From positions 96,001 to 160,000 of the IMG/VR virus record IMGVR_UViG_3300035670_013228: a stretch of 64,000 nucleotides of DNA. One strand, given 5' to 3'. The position numbers and the translations under genes are program-made. Positions 7,503-19,502 of this stretch are shown one piece after another. The notes beneath the pieces are model-generated. The model was not told where the DNA came from, made no database searches, and was given only the letters and a program-made list of their open reading frames with translations. This DNA is from a virus. Within the stretch, counting starts at the first letter, position 1; every line of letters begins with the position of its first letter.

Positions 7503-7950
7503 TATGCATATCCGTTGGGTTGTATTCGTCTATAATAGCTATTGGTGTTTTCCAACATATGTTATATTCCGCATATAATTTTGGATTAGAAACTATTAAC
7601 TCAAAGTCTTTATTCATAAATATGTCTTTCCAAAATACATAAGGAGCTTTTGTATTAGTAGACCAATCATTTGAGGTTAGATATAATACTTGTTTTTTAG
7701 GACACGGAAAAGTTCTTGTTAATAAAGCACTTTTAATATCGAATACAAATAGTATACCATCAAAATATTTGGCCTGATTGATATGTAATATGTAGTATTT
7801 ATGATCTAAGTCAACATTATTATATTTACTATTGAACAATACTATATTATCATAGGGTCTTAGTTTGCACAGACTATTAATGGATTCTAAAATTTTTGCA
7901 TGTTGTTGATTTTTAGAATTGATATCCAGTAGGTAGAATCCTATATTCAT
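7483..7950 (-). CDS. Hypothetical protein of the glycosylation cassette
   Basis: ORF overlaps its neighbours; weak GT-B-like character only. Confidence 0.55.
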   Translation of the reverse strand: MNIGFYLLDINSKNQQHAKILESINSLCKLRPYDNIVLFNSKYNNVDLDHKYYILHINQAKYFDGILFVFDIKSALLTRTFPCPKKQVLYLTSNDWSTNTKAPYVFWKDIFMNKDFELIVSNPKLYAEYNICWKTPIAIIDEYNPTDMHNVIQKL

Positions 7951-8732
7951 CTATCACCCATAATATGTGGTATTAAATACTTATCAATAAAGTATTTGTA
8001 TGTTTTTGTTTCTATGTTTGAAATTTTTTCTGTTAATCTGATATTATCTATAGCATCAATAATAGAATAGTTTACTATATCATAATGATTGATTCCAGAA
8101 GCTTGACTTTCTAGTAGATAGTTTTGGTCAAGATCAATAACTCCACTATAAAGAGAAAGAATATTTGCCAAATCAGGATAATTAAAAACGCCGACATTAA
8201 CTTCTGATTCGTATTCTGGATTATTCATAACTACTATTTGTCTATTTGTTTTTGGATAAATAATATCTGACAATAACTCTATATTTTTTTCATTATTTTT
8301 TGAGAGCAAAACAACGATCTTATTATTTCTTTCCGGGCCGGTATCAAAGAAAATAGTATGGTCATATAAATTATCAAATAAACATACTGTATTTTTATAT
8401 TTACTATCTATATTCTTTTTCAGCACAACATTTATATTGGTATTATTGATATGTTCAACAAATTTATCATCCACAAGACCATCTACAACAAGATAAATTT
8501 TTACAGAGTCGTCGTGGTCTCTGACAAAGTCATGAAATTCTTGGGTGTATTCCGATATATGCCAGACCAGATTAGAAAATCTGTGTTTTTGATATGTGCT
8601 GAATAACTTGCCGTGAAATTTGCCAAATAAAACATCGGTATTAGACATACTATTTATGCCGTCGATCAAGAACTTATTCATTCCTTTGCTGCAATTATTC
8701 TGAGCGTCGTGCAATAGTGTTGTTTGTTTCAT
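7947..8732 (-). CDS. Hypothetical, glycosyltransferase-like protein
   Basis: C-terminal DLANILSLYSGVI...LLESQASG resembles a degenerate GT-B donor-binding motif. Confidence 0.5.
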   Translation of the reverse strand: MKQTTLLHDAQNNCSKGMNKFLIDGINSMSNTDVLFGKFHGKLFSTYQKHRFSNLVWHISEYTQEFHDFVRDHDDSVKIYLVVDGLVDDKFVEHINNTNINVVLKKNIDSKYKNTVCLFDNLYDHTIFFDTGPERNNKIVVLLSKNNEKNIELLSDIIYPKTNRQIVVMNNPEYESEVNVGVFNYPDLANILSLYSGVIDLDQNYLLESQASGINHYDIVNYSIIDAIDNIRLTEKISNIETKTYKYFIDKYLIPHIMGDR

Positions 8733-14002: not shown

Positions 14003-14031
14003 ATTATACCAAAAAGACACACAGATGTCAA
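14003..14031 (-). promoter_or_regulatory. Consensus sigma70 promoter for ssb
   Basis: TTGACA (14031-14026), 17-nt spacer, TATAAT (14008-14003). Confidence 0.85.
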
Positions 14032-15644
14032 GTTTTCGGTATAAAACACTTTTCTACTATAAATGAATCATCACCCTGTCCTTTTTTACCCTTAATAATA
14101 ATTATGTTATTGTCAAATAGAATATGTTTATATGTTCTATATGCTTCGGGGAAAAAGATAACACTATCTATAGATCCATAGCCGTCCGTTAAGCATACAA
14201 AAGCCATCTCTGCACCAGGAGATTTTCCAGACTTTGTTTTTGTTATATTTAAGCTAGAAATTTCTCCGCACACAATAAGATTATCTTTTAGTAAAATAGT
14301 TTTAAAATCTTTGCAGTTACAATTAGTCATGCTAACATCATACATATCCACTTTTGAACAAGTAATAGGACATCCTAAAACCTCATCTTCGGAATCAGCA
14401 ATCCATTCAGGATTATCATCCAGAGAATATGGTGGTTTTTTAATTGTGTCTAACATACTATTAATAGTAGTTTTTCTTTTTTGTGTTAATTTATGTTCAT
14501 GACATAGTTTATATATATACTCATATATAGTACTACATGAAGATATTTGATTTATTAGATATAATATTTCTTTGTTGGTAAGCTCGCTAACTAAACTAAA
14601 TTCAAATAACATACTTGTTCTAGTTTTTTTTGTAAAGTCAAGAGATCCCGATTTTATTAGAGCTTTAGCTGCTGTAGAATTAATATTAAGTAATATACGA
14701 AATAGAATATCGTACCAACTAGATTGGTATAGATCAATCTTATTATCTTCTACTATAGTAGATAATTTTTTATATACAGAAGATCCAAAACCTTTAATAT
14801 CTGTTAAACCAAAATATATATTTTTATCTTTTAGTATAAATAGTTCATTCATAAGACGTAAGTCTGGAACACTAACCAATATATCCATTTCTGTAGCATT
14901 TTGAACTAAAGATTTGATTTCTGCTTTAGGATCTATTTTATCTTTAGCGAATCTAAGATACGAAGCAAAGAAAACTTTAGGAAAATGAGCCTTACAATAT
15001 GCGGATAAATAGGCATTAATCGCATACGATACTGCATGACTTTTATTAAAAGAATATCTTTGGCTTTTTTCTATCCATCCAAAAATTTCCTCAGCTTCTG
15101 ATACCGAAACTATTTTTTTGTGTTTGGCCCCATCTATAAATTTATTTTTTAGTTTGGACATTTCTTCTGGTTTTTTCTTACCAATAGCTTTTCTAAGATT
15201 ATCTGCTTCTTGTAGGTCAAATCCGGCTATTTCTTTAGCTATTTCCATAGCCTGTTCCTGATAAATCATTTCACCATAGGTCTTTTTAAGTATGGATTCT
15301 AGTGCTGGATGATAATAATCTACAGATTCTTTGCCATTCTTTTTATCTATATAATGACTACTAACAGTTTTACCGTCTCTTACCGCTTCTAAGCATCCTG
15401 GTCTTAGAATGCTGATTAATGCGGATAGCTGTTCTATGTTCTGTGGTTTTAACTTTTTCGCCATTGATCGCCCTAAACGAGACTCTAATTGAAAACAACC
15501 TTTTGTGTTACCATCAGAAATAAGATTCCATGTTTTAGGACAATCTAGATTTATTTGATTGTTTATCGGATTAAAAGCAATATTTGTTTTATTTTGATCC
15601 AATAAATCAAATGAACAACCACATGAGTATGCAAATTTCTTCAT
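14028..15644 (-). CDS. dnaE: DNA polymerase III alpha, C-terminal half
   Basis: GCFQLES, SILRPG, GEMIYQEQAM, LRKAIGKK, YSFNKSHAVSY, GLTDIKGFG, OB-fold MAFVCLTD. Confidence 0.92.
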   Translation of the reverse strand: MKKFAYSCGCSFDLLDQNKTNIAFNPINNQINLDCPKTWNLISDGNTKGCFQLESRLGRSMAKKLKPQNIEQLSALISILRPGCLEAVRDGKTVSSHYIDKKNGKESVDYYHPALESILKKTYGEMIYQEQAMEIAKEIAGFDLQEADNLRKAIGKKKPEEMSKLKNKFIDGAKHKKIVSVSEAEEIFGWIEKSQRYSFNKSHAVSYAINAYLSAYCKAHFPKVFFASYLRFAKDKIDPKAEIKSLVQNATEMDILVSVPDLRLMNELFILKDKNIYFGLTDIKGFGSSVYKKLSTIVEDNKIDLYQSSWYDILFRILLNINSTAAKALIKSGSLDFTKKTRTSMLFEFSLVSELTNKEILYLINQISSCSTIYEYIYKLCHEHKLTQKRKTTINSMLDTIKKPPYSLDDNPEWIADSEDEVLGCPITCSKVDMYDVSMTNCNCKDFKTILLKDNLIVCGEISSLNITKTKSGKSPGAEMAFVCLTDGYGSIDSVIFFPEAYRTYKHILFDNNIIIIKGKKGQGDDSFIVEKCFIPKT

Positions 15645-16327
15645 CTAAAAGAATCCTTAAATTTAATGTTCTTAGAGAGTCTTCTGTGTAGTTTCATAAA
15701 TCTAATCATTATATTCGCTGTGTCTATGACATCTTTGGAAGCATCGTGAGCACCTTCCTTTGATATTCCGAAATATTCTCTTAGTGAATCTAAAGTATAA
15801 CTCTTAATATCACTATTCTGTTCAAACCAATAAAATATAAGATTAATTACATCTATAACATCTCTAGGATAAAAAAGATCTGTTTTTCCTTCTTTATTTA
15901 TGTTTTTATATTTGCTACTAAGTCTATTGATTATGGGTAAATCAAATCTATATATATTATATCCAGCAGCTATTGGTGCTGTAAACTGACTTTTTTTAGA
16001 CGATCTTGTATGGTATTTATCGAGATAGTCTGTAAACATTTTCCAAGAATGTTCTTGAGCAGGATTTGCTTTCCATTTACTTATAATATCTTCTTTTGAG
16101 CAACCATAAACCTTGGCATGAAAATCTACAACATCTGTGGTATATACGTAGTCGGAATCTTTTTCAAGAGTTTCTGGCTTAAAATAAATATTAAATTCTG
16201 AATTGGGTATAATTTCTAGATTAATGGGATCGATTATCACAGCAGCCAATTGGACAGGACTGCAAGACTCTGCATCTACGCCGTCCGTTTCAAAATCAAA
16301 AACACAAATTTTGTTATAATTGATCAT
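15641..16327 (-). CDS. DEDDh 3'-5' exonuclease (DnaQ-like)
   Basis: VFDFETDG, AGYNIYRFD, GAHDASKD. Confidence 0.9.
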   Translation of the reverse strand: MINYNKICVFDFETDGVDAESCSPVQLAAVIIDPINLEIIPNSEFNIYFKPETLEKDSDYVYTTDVVDFHAKVYGCSKEDIISKWKANPAQEHSWKMFTDYLDKYHTRSSKKSQFTAPIAAGYNIYRFDLPIINRLSSKYKNINKEGKTDLFYPRDVIDVINLIFYWFEQNSDIKSYTLDSLREYFGISKEGAHDASKDVIDTANIMIRFMKLHRRLSKNIKFKDSFR

Positions 16328-16509
16328 TCTGTTACAACTTCTACCTCTGTAATAGGAATTATGAAATGTTTTTTTGTTGAATCTGTGGCAAGAACAGCAT
16401 TGAAGAGTTTACAGCAAGATATTCTTTCGTCTTGAATTTTAATAAATTCTTTATTATCTGTTTTAAACTTGGTGCCAACCGAAATATCTGCAAATTTTTG
16501 TAGTGACAT
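16324..16509 (-). CDS. Small hypothetical protein
   Basis: 61-aa ORF filling the gap between the exonuclease and dnaE-N, overlapping the former by 4 nt. Confidence 0.65.
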   Translation of the reverse strand: MSLQKFADISVGTKFKTDNKEFIKIQDERISCCKLFNAVLATDSTKKHFIIPITEVEVVTE

Positions 16510-16511
16510 AA

Positions 16512-18359
16512 TTATTCTCCTTCTTTTAATAGATCTTGAATCGTCATAATTTTATCTAGCATTGCTACACCGAGAATATCAAATTTTATTATTCCTAATG
16601 ATTCTAGATCTTGCATCTCCATTCCAGCTATCATTTGTTCATTTTTAGAATCATAAATCATAGGACAAATATCTTTGAGTGGACTAGCGCTTATGGCTAT
16701 TCCGGCCGCATGTTTAGATTGATTCGATTTTGTTCCTTCTAGTCTAATAGCCTGCTCGAATCTTTTTGCAAGTGGACCATTTAAAGTATTATTAGAATCT
16801 ATATAACAATAATCTTTTAAGCCGTCTGCATTATTTTCTAAAGCCCATCTTATAATAGATGCTTCTCCTGTTTCTTCTTTCATTTCTTGAAGCTCATCGG
16901 CAATTTTTGCTTCATCCGGGATATTCTTAGTAATTTTATTCATTTCGTCAAAAGATATATTGCCATATACTCTAAGAACATCTTTAAGAGCACCCCTACC
17001 TTTGATAGTGTTAAAAGTTATCATTTGAGAAACCTTATCTTCTCCATACTTATTTTTAATATATTGTATGATATTTTCTCTTTTATTAATTGGTACATCC
17101 ACATCTATATCTGGCATTGATATTCTATCTTTAGTATTTCTTCCAGAATTATAAAATCTATCAAACATTAGATTATATTTAATAGGATCAATATTTGTAA
17201 TGCCGATCAAATAAGACACCAGACAACCAGCAGCACTGCCTCTACCCGGTCCTGGTAACCAATTATTAGTTTTTACATAATTCACAATATCTTGTACAAG
17301 TAGAAAATAACTAGAAAGATTGGCACCTTGCAAAACATCTAGTTCGTATTTGATACGATCAACATAAATACCCTGATCATTTTCTGGTACTGTTTTTGCT
17401 ATTTTTTGTTTCCAGCCCTTTCTACATAATTCCCTAAGATATTCAGCATCTGTATACCCTGCCGGACAACTAAAAGGAGGTAAATTAGGCTTATCTAATA
17501 TATTATATTCTTCACACATACTATCTATTAAGTTTGTATTTTCTATTTCCTCCTCAGTATGTATACTATGCATTTCTTCTTGAGATAATATATGAAAATT
17601 GTCTGATGTAAAAAAAGCAGAGAGAGGAATATCTTCGTGATTATGAATTTTTTTACTAATTTCTCCGAAAGTTGTTTTTAGATTATTACATAGTAAAATT
17701 CTTTGATCTACCGCGTCTGTTTTTCTACAGTAATGGGCATCTGGTGTGCAGACAACCTTGGTATCGGTTATTACGCCTAGTTCTCTAATGCAGTCTGTTA
17801 GGGTCTTTTGTATGGGTAAGTTTTCTTGATCCATTAGTTGGGATTCTAGAAAAAAATTATCTTTTCCAAAGATGTCCTTAAAAGAGTTAATATGTTCGAT
17901 TCCAATATTTTTCCAATCTGATACAATCTTGTCGGCAATAACAAGCTTGTCGGCAATAAAAGATCCTAAATGTCCACAGATACAGACTAGATCACCTCTA
18001 ACGTATTCTTTTAATAAGGACAAATCTAATCTTGGTTTATGATAGTAAAAATTGGGTCTGTTAGATAAAGAAACAATTTCTATTAAATTCTTCCATCCTC
18101 TGTAATTTTTGGCCAAAACCAGTAAATGGCTTAGTTTTTTATTTTCCTTAGTTTGAACAGAAGCATCGTCGGAAGCGATATATAGCTCACAGCCAATAAT
18201 AGGCTTGATGCTATTCTTCTTCATTTCTGTATAAAACTTAATAGCTCCAGAAATATTTCCATGATCTGTTAGTGCGCATGATTTTGCATTAATTTCCAAA
18301 CATCTATCGGCGATTTGATGAGGTTGAGAAAGTCCATCCAATAGTGAGTAATGAGTCAC
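16512..18359 (-). CDS. dnaE: DNA polymerase III alpha, N-terminal half (PHP + palm), lacking the first HxH motif
   Basis: HYSLLDG, ALTDHGN, PGRGSAAG, MPDIDVD, SKHAAG, KFDILG; ends in a stop. GTG start overlaps the upstream TAG. Confidence 0.92.
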   Translation of the reverse strand: MTHYSLLDGLSQPHQIADRCLEINAKSCALTDHGNISGAIKFYTEMKKNSIKPIIGCELYIASDDASVQTKENKKLSHLLVLAKNYRGWKNLIEIVSLSNRPNFYYHKPRLDLSLLKEYVRGDLVCICGHLGSFIADKLVIADKIVSDWKNIGIEHINSFKDIFGKDNFFLESQLMDQENLPIQKTLTDCIRELGVITDTKVVCTPDAHYCRKTDAVDQRILLCNNLKTTFGEISKKIHNHEDIPLSAFFTSDNFHILSQEEMHSIHTEEEIENTNLIDSMCEEYNILDKPNLPPFSCPAGYTDAEYLRELCRKGWKQKIAKTVPENDQGIYVDRIKYELDVLQGANLSSYFLLVQDIVNYVKTNNWLPGPGRGSAAGCLVSYLIGITNIDPIKYNLMFDRFYNSGRNTKDRISMPDIDVDVPINKRENIIQYIKNKYGEDKVSQMITFNTIKGRGALKDVLRVYGNISFDEMNKITKNIPDEAKIADELQEMKEETGEASIIRWALENNADGLKDYCYIDSNNTLNGPLAKRFEQAIRLEGTKSNQSKHAAGIAISASPLKDICPMIYDSKNEQMIAGMEMQDLESLGIIKFDILGVAMLDKIMTIQDLLKEGE

Positions 18360-18403
18360 TAGGAATGGACATGAAGAGGAACATACGTTCTTCTCATATC
18401 CAT
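18359..18403 (-). CDS. 14-codon micro-ORF carrying the DnaE N-terminus (MDMRRTYVPLHVHS)
   Basis: AAGGA RBS upstream of ATG 18403. Encodes the LHVHS motif that normally precedes xYSLLDG; ends in TAG TGA. Confidence 0.75.
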   Translation of the reverse strand: MDMRRTYVPLHVHS

Positions 18404-18455
18404 TATATTTTTATCCTTTCCTTTTCTAAAGATCTGTCAACTATTTATAACAAAA

Positions 18456-19502
18456 CTATTCGGCACTACCCGGAGCTTTGTACTGTCCTACATTATACCC
18501 CGGAGCTTGGTATTCGTCAACCACCACATCTATGCCCTTAACCGATATGTCGTGATGAACTTGTTCGCACATTGTCATATGTTCACCAAGTGGTGTAATC
18601 TGATTTTCTCTATATTCTATTATGGGAAGATGATTGGTATTATTAAATGTATTTTTGCCAAAATGACATAATTTTGTACATTTCCAGCTTTTGTTTAGTT
18701 CTGGATTAGTAGTATTTTTTATGGTTTCAAATTTATTCTTTAACATATTTTCAATTTTAGATATATGAGACTTGTCAAAACAGATCGAAAACATACCACC
18801 ATCATTAATAAAATATATAGACACTATAACATATTTAGCATCTGGGTATAATTTATGTACAGCATAGTAGTAGAGCATTAGTTGTGGATCTTCATGTAGT
18901 TTTGCCAAGGTTTTTTCCTGACCGGTTGCCCAATCTAATCTCTTGCCGGTTTTATAGTCTATAATTTCTAGTGTATCGTCATTGACGCGCGCTATTAGAT
19001 CCATAGTTCCTTTAATAGCTAAGTACCCATTAATTTGTCCCGTTTTAGTTTGATAATTATATTTAGCCCATTCTTTTTTTATTTCTATATCAAAATGCTG
19101 TTCTGGTTGTACAATATTTTTATTCCTAGGATCAAATATGCCATCAGAATAATTAAGGGCTTTAAAAATCCATTTTTTGCATTCATTATAGTCGGCTGCC
19201 GACCACTCATGATGATTAAATTTTGATATGTAATAATCGTATACTTTTTCTATAATTAGATTAATATCATAATTATTAATATCTATTATACCCAATATTT
19301 CTGTATCATTATAGTACTGTTGATTATTTTGATCACACAATTTTATATGTGCAAGAATTTCGAAAACTTTGTGACATATAGTACCTTTATCTGCTTTTTT
19401 GTTGGATTTAGATTTTATCCCAAGAACATATTCGAACATATATTGCATAGGACACATGGAGTGTGTTCCGTAACTGGAACTTCTTAGATATGTGATAATC
19501 AT
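18456..19502 (-). CDS. Cas4/AddB-like PD-(D/E)xK exonuclease with four-Cys cluster
   Basis: N-terminal CPMQY; KGTMDLI...EIIDYKTG...QLMLY; C-terminal CTKLC...C. Confidence 0.85.
   Translation of the reverse strand: MIITYLRSSSYGTHSMCPMQYMFEYVLGIKSKSNKKADKGTICHKVFEILAHIKLCDQNNQQYYNDTEILGIIDINNYDINLIIEKVYDYYISKFNHHEWSAADYNECKKWIFKALNYSDGIFDPRNKNIVQPEQHFDIEIKKEWAKYNYQTKTGQINGYLAIKGTMDLIARVNDDTLEIIDYKTGKRLDWATGQEKTLAKLHEDPQLMLYYYAVHKLYPDAKYVIVSIYFINDGGMFSICFDKSHISKIENMLKNKFETIKNTTNPELNKSWKCTKLCHFGKNTFNNTNHLPIIEYRENQITPLGEHMTMCEQVHHDISVKGIDVVVDEYQAPGYNVGQYKAPGSAE

Follow-up and report, generated by a model that had tools for sequence, protein, structure and literature searches.

A short stop-containing gap in the PHP motif of a phage dnaE gene is probably crossed by a programmed ribosome hop

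A phage dnaE gene carries, among the codons for the metal-binding motif of its PHP domain, a gap of 8 nucleotides (nt) that begins with a stop codon. This gap is probably crossed by a programmed short translational bypass (ribosome hop), which would make the element an independent, short counterpart of the bypass in T4 gene 60. The gene lies on the minus strand of a 64,000-nt stretch of viral DNA, referred to here as the window, that spans positions 96,001 to 160,000 of IMG/VR record IMGVR_UViG_3300035670_013228. The evidence for a bypass is entirely comparative and draws on related phage genes that are interrupted at the same site.

Read codon by codon, the minus strand opens with a micro open reading frame (micro-ORF; 18359..18403) made up of ATG, 13 further codons (MDMRRTYVPLHVHS) and TAG, namely ATG GAT ATG AGA AGA ACG TAT GTT CCT CTT CAT GTC CAT TCC TAG. 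It codes for β-strand 1 of the PHP domain and for its H-x-H metal ligands. A Shine-Dalgarno-like AGGA (18414..18417, minus strand) is found 10 nt 5′ of its start, consistent with the ribosome-binding site that a first-pass annotation of this DNA had assigned to it, and lies in a 52-nt spacer (18404-18455, minus strand) without counterpart in uninterrupted relatives. Downstream of the TAG, the strand continues TG ACT CAT TAC TCA CTA TTG GAT GGA. The listed ORF of 615 amino acids (aa; 16512-18359), opened by GTG at 18359, encodes PHP and the palm of the DNA polymerase III (Pol III) α subunit. Because the PHP profile enters this ORF at its position 6, the H-x-H strand is missing from it, and the annotation was right that an 8-nt insert with a stop codon separates H-x-H from the PHP body. 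Micro-ORF and body lie in different frames, the change being −1/+2. Removal of the 8 nt (TAGTGACT, 18354..18361, with TAG at 18361-18359, TG, and ACT at 18356-18354) yields the canonical motif of uninterrupted relatives (PLHVHSMYSLLDG or HCHTHFSLLDG), again as annotated, and the GTG in the dnaE frame does overlap the micro-ORF stop (UAGUG; TAG 18361-18359, GTG 18359).

In the proposed mechanism, translation would initiate at ATG 18403 and proceed through 14 codons, the last of which, TCC (Ser14, 18362..18364), stands directly 5′ of the stop (TCC TAG, 18364-18359). The ribosome would then stall with peptidyl-tRNA-Ser on this take-off codon in the P site and TAG in the A site, slide forward by 8 nt in place of termination, and re-pair the Ser-tRNA with a near-cognate landing codon, which we infer to be ACT (18356-18354). 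Decoding would restart at CAT (His, 18351..18353) and continue through the dnaE-N body, comprising the remainder of PHP and the palm (16512..18353, minus strand; PF02811, PF07733). The product would be a single polypeptide with the canonical PHP motif PLHVHS-H-YSLLDG, although a product containing Thr or extra residues may be the alternative in the clade of the window. Two other hops were tried and rejected: one from His to His (CAT 18367 to CAT 18353) gives a product short of two motif residues, and one from Ser to TCA 18347 deletes x-Tyr-Ser, which is conserved with synonymous variation.

The gap is real and far beyond chance. The same 8 nt occur in L002-L006 and in L007-L008 (IMG/VR), from ENA, Logan and JGI assemblies, and the assembly error that the annotation had entertained is refuted by seven independent assemblies. 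The six closest relatives, themselves independent assemblies, are 85-93% identical to the window in dnaE-N protein and have called starts of the form V/M-THYSLLDG. Across this clade the 8-nt gap is invariant, differences within the micro-ORF are synonymous or conservative (ACG/ACA, TCC/TCT, CAT/CAC, ATG/GTG, AGA/AAA) and the resume codon alternates synonymously between CAT and CAC, whereas the upstream spacer and intergenic DNA have diverged among the closest relatives. Among relatives at or below 81% identity, those with a start called further upstream are uninterrupted (MKxYIPLHVHSMYSLLDG). Relatives of 613 aa were considered as interrupted forms and mostly dismissed as start calls at the internal Met of HSMYSLLDG; the exception is the L022 type, which is truly interrupted and has ATG as its resume codon.

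Interruption at this site recurs widely. Viral contigs were scanned first with a degenerate pattern of H-x-H, gap and YSLLDG, and a second time with a pattern that also demanded Ser and a stop. The site proved to be interrupted in at least 47 distinct variants, carried by 66 viral contigs. In all 47 a TCN codon is followed at once by a stop (TAG in 23, TAA in 20, TGA in 4), a regularity that is partly imposed by the search pattern. The distance from His to Tyr is 11, 13, 14, 15, 16, 17 or 18 nt as against the canonical 6, so that the required shift amounts to 5-12 nt, and all three frame relations are represented. Typical layouts are TCT-TAGGTGAA-TCT-CAT and TCT-TAGAGAA-TCA-CAT, with TCC-TAAGTGGAG-TCT-CAT among the in-frame forms. 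The codon two before Tyr, at which a hop would land, is TCT in 18 variants, TCA in 11, TCC in 2, ACT in 9, GCT in 4, and ACG, TGA or TTT in one each, while the resume codon is CAT (24), CAC (13), ATG (7), GAA (2) or CAA (1). The annotation had seen no matched hop codon; this stands for the window and its clade, where the codon is ACT and shares two of three positions with TCC, and fails for the family, which has Ser at the landing position in 31 of 47 variants. The Y-x-P-L sequence 5′ of H-x-H, unrequired by the first pattern, is invariant save in one variant, and its codons vary synonymously. Only a hop would yield the canonical PLHVHS-x-YSLLDG throughout. The minimal gap occurs in L348 (IMGVR_UViG_3300014720_003491), which reads CAC GTC CAC TCT TAA TCT CAT TTT TCT; here only the stop and an identical Ser codon part the two halves, and the second His codon is CAC, not CAT.

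A sample without bias toward the 5′ region was obtained by fetching 80 relatives with the downstream 595 residues alone. It contained 67 uninterrupted and 13 interrupted genes, and all 13 of the latter have H-x-H-Ser and an immediate stop; no decayed form was present among the 80. Interrupted genes also differ in their N-terminus, with 14 codons up to and including the Ser in 39 of 45 distinct genes versus 10-11 in uninterrupted ones; the longer form begins MD[VM] or MGV. The spacer to the upstream PD-(D/E)XK gene measures 13-99 nt in most interrupted loci versus −4 to +3 nt in most uninterrupted loci. In a FastTree phylogeny of 148 DnaE-N sequences, the interrupted state occupies basal long branches and one all-interrupted clade of 27 rows (SH-like support 95), and two small interrupted clades, one of them that of the window, are nested among uninterrupted genes. 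At least seven state changes are demanded, five of them forced by well-supported branches; given the arbitrary root and biased sampling, the tree does not choose between a gap that was ancestral and then precisely lost and one that was gained repeatedly.

Two hairpins flank the take-off codon, and both are confined to interrupted genes and co-vary there. Together they make up the 67 nt from 18403 to 18337 as abutting structures with a folding energy of −24.3 kcal/mol (z −4.41; none of 200 shuffles as good). Hairpin 1 (18365..18403, minus strand; −17.3 kcal/mol in the window), which the annotation had missed, runs from the start codon to the second His codon, such that the start codon is sequestered in its stem and its 3′ end abuts the take-off codon. 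Its outer stem joins ATGGATATGA to TCATGTCCAT. Since ATG-GAC-GTG and CAC-GTC-CAT are reverse complements, codons 1-3 (M-D-V) pair with the H-x-H codons, which provides a structural reason for the extra N-terminal codons of interrupted genes; codons 4-6 pair with the Pro-Leu codons. The fold from start to second His averages −17.3 kcal/mol in 38 distinct interrupted genes and −1.2 kcal/mol in 68 uninterrupted genes, with no overlap between the two distributions (Mann-Whitney U = 0). In an ungapped alignment, 99% of cells are paired in the 9-bp outer helix, compared with 17-60% when the partner is slid, and none of 2000 permutations of the inner stem was as stable. Pair 7-33 is GC in 20 cases, AU in 11 and GU in 3, three more pairs vary solely via G·U, and motifs with Cys (TGT) accompany a Thr codon 2 (ACA or ACG) in place of GAC. 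The G·U wobbles are compatible with the sense-strand RNA alone.

Hairpin 2 (18337..18364, minus strand) begins at the take-off site and pairs the stop and gap with the Ser-Leu codons of the body. Its 5′ arm, TAGTGA (18361-18356), is complementary to TCACTA (18347-18342), the stem-loop that the annotation had described, and outer pairs of TCC with GGA extend it; the 8-nt loop takes in the resume codon and the greater part of the landing codon. By itself this hairpin reaches −6.7 kcal/mol (z −1.97) in the window. The minimum-energy fold pairs the stop and remainder of the gap with the Tyr (third base)-Ser-Leu codons in 36 of 38 variants; the loop or its edge then holds the landing and resume codons, and TCY/GGA pairs extend the stem outward. 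The arms change in concert: TAGTGA/TCACTA in the window, and TAGAGAA/TTCTCTA, TAGCGA/TCGCTA, TAACGA/TCGTTA and AGGTGAA/TTCACTT elsewhere. A single consensus on a MAFFT alignment was unworkable, as the choice of Leu codon (CTA or CTT) alters the register of the pairing, and arm-swap tests were used instead. A variant's own arms were the more stable pair in 35 of 38 cases, with mean energies of −5.6 kcal/mol for own pairs, −5.2 within a 3′-arm class and −2.9 between classes; the equivalent region of uninterrupted genes averages −1.1 kcal/mol. The GTGA after the stop was also considered as a Shine-Dalgarno sequence, a reading that was dropped since the AGAGAA, CGA and ACGA variants are not Shine-Dalgarno-like yet pair with their own 3′ arms.

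The placement of the two structures suggests how each may contribute. Hairpin 2, starting at the stop codon, would form in the A site or next to it and impede the release factor, by analogy with T4 gene 60. At take-off the ribosome would cover positions −1 to about −17, which make up the 3′ arm of hairpin 1, and the outer stem of this hairpin (9-10 bp) could re-zip behind the ribosome; as this stem could re-form only if the mRNA advances by ~5-12 nt, a forward slide of about the stem length would be favoured. Such a role agrees with the proposal that bypassing is driven forward by pairing within the mRNA that exits the ribosome (bioRxiv 10.1101/2024.12.09.627546).

The hairpins bring the flanks of the gap together, and deletion of the 8 nt from the mRNA by a micro-intron or editing would restore the frame. 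We regard such removal at the RNA level as very improbable: we know of no bacterial or phage splicing that acts on inserts of 5-12 nt, the region 17900-18800 has no Rfam match at E ≤ 1, and the invariable Ser-stop and matched landing codons are translational features that would have no role in splicing. The remnant of a group I intron suggested in the annotation, or any self-splicing intron, fares no better, given an insert of 8 nt in the window and gaps of 5-12 nt in relatives, where a catalytic core takes a hundred nt or more, and given the same lack of an Rfam match. Reassignment of the stop codon was rejected too, as all three stops occur at the site, frame 0 meets a TGA, and the one tRNA gene of the genome is for Leu (Leu-CAA, 175989-176071; ARAGORN), which leaves no suppressor tRNA.

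The genome appears to need this gene in working form. The window is part of a 177,880-bp IMG/VR record with 32.7% GC that CheckV rates as 100% complete, and the gene encodes its sole Pol III α palm; neither PolA nor PolB was found in the genome. In a complete genome of this kind the gene must work. An alignment to Thermus aquaticus Pol III α (2HPI) shows that the other PHP ligand positions are all kept: D of LLDG, H of TDHGN, E of GCELY, H of HLLVLAK, C of CGHLG, and D and H of PDAHY. Their retention suggests a domain of the metal-binding type, which would need the H-x-H pair. The gap might still be a non-functional relic, either a tolerated lesion or an artefact, with a polymerase that copes without H-x-H through DEDDh proofreading; a DEDDh exonuclease gene does lie between the two dnaE halves, and E. 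coli-type PHP domains have lost metal ligands. This explanation is already largely refuted, and we consider it highly improbable, for the gap is shared among independent assemblies, deep branches have kept the micro-ORF and the two co-varying hairpins, the relatives fetched by the downstream protein include no decayed gene, the remaining PHP ligands are intact, and uninterrupted relatives with the same exonuclease arrangement still keep H-x-H. Conservation on deep branches and intact ligands likewise dispose of the recent, tolerated quasi-palindrome mutation proposed in the annotation.

The overlap of stop and start raises the possibility of termination followed by reinitiation, in which a 14-aa peptide would be released, translation would restart at the GTG overlapping the TAG (UAGUG), and DnaE-N would be made without strand 1 and H-x-H, the peptide either completing PHP in trans or being dispensable. 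An in-frame GTG over the stop is present in the window and its clade, several in-frame variants have a stop-GTG, and gene callers annotate dnaE-N from that start; the trans-acting, translationally coupled peptide envisaged in the annotation would be compatible with the sequence of the window. The scheme does not extend to the family, in which 18 of 38 variants lack any ATG, GTG or TTG in frame ahead of Tyr. In the forms with 16 or 17 nt from His to Tyr the GTG is out of frame, and the AGAA, GGAA and CGA forms do not have it; the corresponding bases there pair with the 3′ arm of hairpin 2. Under reinitiation, the Ser or near-cognate codon that is conserved at one set position would have no role, and the Y-x-P-L-H-x-H-S peptide is kept on deep branches with synonymous variation next to a PHP site that is otherwise complete. 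In established structures the first PHP strand of Pol III α is normally part of the same chain. We judge reinitiation to be unlikely.

For the clade of the window alone, a −1 frameshift could be envisioned in which the Ser-tRNA slips from UCC to UUC at U_UCC_UAG and decoding proceeds through CUA GUG ACU CAU, giving PLHVHS-LVTH-YSLLDG (junction HVHSLVTHYSLLDG), three residues over the canonical length. The shift needed here is −1/+2 and the −1 frame is open, UCC to UUC would re-pair with one G·U, the TCC to TCT change in L004 is synonymous in both frames, and a stop in the A site with a nearby hairpin is a typical frameshift stimulator. Against this, there is no X_XXY_YYZ heptamer, in agreement with the annotation's statement that the sequence (CAU UCC UAG) holds no classic slippery site, and the hairpin starts from the A-site codon rather than 5-9 nt downstream. 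Three residues would be added to a motif of invariant spacing in all uninterrupted relatives. Nor could a −1 shift serve the in-frame and +1 variants, or L080 and L094, where the frame is blocked by stops; stops in the dnaE frame inside the gap, found in these two, in all forms with 15 or 18 nt from His to Tyr and in L348, where this distance is 12 nt, exclude simple frameshifting in those variants. We rate this explanation as slightly less likely still than reinitiation. The annotation had listed five options without choosing among them; recoding is the one that the variant family and the hairpins support.

The locus also offers a hint as to the origin of the element. In L031, L032, L076, L093 and L131, a ~240-aa ORF ends inside the start of the micro-ORF and matches PHROG families for endonuclease, HNH and EndoVII (E down to 5e-23); against Pfam these ORFs gave nothing above threshold, with weak HTH matches only. 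HNH-type fragments occupy the same place in L067 and L094. An HNH ORF or fragment thus lies directly upstream in 7 of 62 interrupted loci versus 1 of 106 uninterrupted loci (Fisher p = 0.004, with relatedness of the loci ignored). In the one uninterrupted case, L209, dnaE (MKNTYFPLHCHSHYSLLDG) is adjoined by an HNH ORF from this family (E 5e-90), with the ORF and the dnaE start at about 7,550-8,320 on the minus strand of the locus; it shows that the nuclease can neighbour an unbroken site with differing codons (TCG CAC TAC TCA TTA CTC). The element probably has its origin in a homing-endonuclease cassette of the HNH type, in which the gap would break up the target of the nuclease within a highly conserved motif. 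The genome of the window, which gave no match to the HNH profile at E ≤ 1 over its whole length, keeps the 52-nt spacer where stop and start overlap or abut in uninterrupted relatives, and has probably retained only the bypass part of the cassette.

Several considerations weigh against a bypass. In the clade of the window, the landing codon is unmatched, as TCC or TCT pairs with ACT at two of three positions, and the dnaE frame, which is open for 21 codons 5′ of the junction, together with the in-frame GTG at the stop, would fit a −1 shift or a restart. Hairpin 2 is marginal on its own (z about −2). The nascent chain is only 14 residues long, which makes a nascent-peptide signal of the gene 60 type unlikely, and the energetics of take-off are unexplained. 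The interrupted set was gathered in part with patterns that demand H-x-H, Ser and stop, and its members are phylogenetically related, so that counts of variants do not equal independent events. Finally, the HNH link is weak in this sample, and the nuclease is absent from the genome of the window.

Some further features of these genomes were recorded. IMG/VR labels the 177,880-bp record 'provirus' despite its CheckV rating of complete. blastn against cultured phages returned no match, and the best cultured relative is less than 36% identical (tblastn). dnaE is split in the window (14028-18359, minus strand) into the 615-aa PHP and palm gene and a 538-aa gene for fingers, HhH and OB, between which lie a 61-aa ORF of no known family and the 228-aa DEDDh exonuclease gene; this order is the same in the interrupted relatives L002-L005. 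Distant homologues of the HNH profile (E 1e-32 to 9e-19) are found in L022, L134, L138 and L142, which are interrupted, and in L222, which is not, about 1.1-1.5 kb 5′ of the dnaE Pro codon and upstream of the PD-(D/E)XK gene. In L149 (1274-3325, plus strand) the upstream PD-(D/E)XK gene is 684 aa long and includes a LAGLIDADG-like domain (PF14528, E 4e-7), which may be an intein or an endonuclease insertion in this neighbouring gene.

Taken further, the data could describe a minimal, self-contained device of ~67 nt, in which a hairpin over the start codon re-zips and a hairpin over the stop codon blocks termination, which together would move the ribosome by 5-12 nt without a long nascent signal and even onto a near-cognate landing codon. 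The evolution of such a device would have been separate from that of gene 60: it would have been the immunity part of an HNH homing cassette and have persisted in many phages after loss of the nuclease; the chances for and against this fuller account seem to us evenly balanced. If a bypass does operate here, it would constitute a second, independent phage family, whose dozens of natural variants form a ready-made mutational series, with differences in gap length (5-12 nt), frame, stop and landing codon that bear on take-off, slide and landing. The 67-nt cassette would make the refolding of mRNA on the exit side directly testable as a forward driver, and the family would support the idea that homing endonucleases recruit recoding devices and guard their own targets within the most conserved motifs. 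At present, dnaE genes of this kind are annotated as N-terminally truncated proteins that have lost two ligands of the catalytic site.

Searches of the literature turned up no account of bypassing in dnaE or in a PHP domain. To our knowledge, efficient programmed bypassing is limited to a few natural systems, namely T4 gene 60 and its homologues, one candidate from a Streptomyces phage and one yeast mitochondrion. Low-level hopping over stops between matched flanking codons is said to have been described in E. coli by Weiss et al. 1987 as a rare error in synthetic or chance sequences. There too, peptidyl-tRNA detaches before a stop and re-pairs a few nt downstream, and L348 (TCT TAA TCT) has exactly this form; the dnaE layout differs in being conserved, in an essential gene and equipped with dedicated RNA structures. 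The 'byp' inserts of Magnusiomyces capitatus mitochondria are reportedly mobile, 27-55 nt long, and endowed with matched take-off and landing codons and hairpin potential. According to the account cited in PMC10732093, these short untranslated inserts are numerous, lie inside coding sequences and are bypassed in translation; they occupy many mitochondrial sites, in contrast to the one fixed site and much shorter gaps of the phage gene. Closest in gap length is the terminase of Streptomyces phage phiHau3, for which 10-nt inserts with a proposed bypass at UUA and a junction peptide in E. coli have been reported (Antonov et al. 2023, PMC10732093). In both this gene and dnaE the gap is short, the phage gene is essential, local RNA structures are predicted and a landing codon is near. 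The stall in phiHau3 is at a rare sense codon, UUA, and proposed to be regulatory, whereas that in dnaE would always be at a stop, and the dnaE element has two hairpins that co-vary and exists in a great many natural variants.

The nearest mechanistic parallel is T4 gene 60, whose 50-nt bypass and MobA HNH cassette are said to be credited also to Huang 1988 and Bonocora 2011. Both systems have a stop within a hairpin directly after the take-off codon and a second hairpin 5′ of it, and a matched landing codon is present in gene 60 and in most dnaE variants. The site falls in a metal-binding motif of an essential replication protein in each case, and an HNH gene just upstream, an added N-terminal extension, and frequent loss of the nuclease with retention of the bypass are further points of likeness. 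In gene 60, a hairpin in the A site at take-off guards against termination (Agirrezabala 2017, PMC5462505), pairing of the mRNA on the exit side has been proposed as a forward driver (bioRxiv 10.1101/2024.12.09.627546), and the bypass shields the element from its own nuclease and often outlasts the nuclease (Manning and Atkins, bioRxiv 10.1101/2022.08.31.505936). The two systems also differ. Gene 60 encodes the large subunit of topoisomerase II, takes off and lands on GGA (Gly) across 50 nt, and carries a nascent-peptide signal in an N-terminal extension of 44-45 aa, whereas the dnaE gap lies in a PHP motif, measures 5-12 nt (8 here), and has its take-off Ser at codon 14, after a chain of 14 aa. 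In dnaE the start codon lies inside the upstream hairpin, which directly adjoins the take-off codon, the landing codon is placed at the top of the take-off hairpin, the genome of the window is without the nuclease, and no sequence relation connects the two elements. With another host gene, gap and take-off codon and no common sequence, the dnaE element would thus work like gene 60 without being a member of its family.

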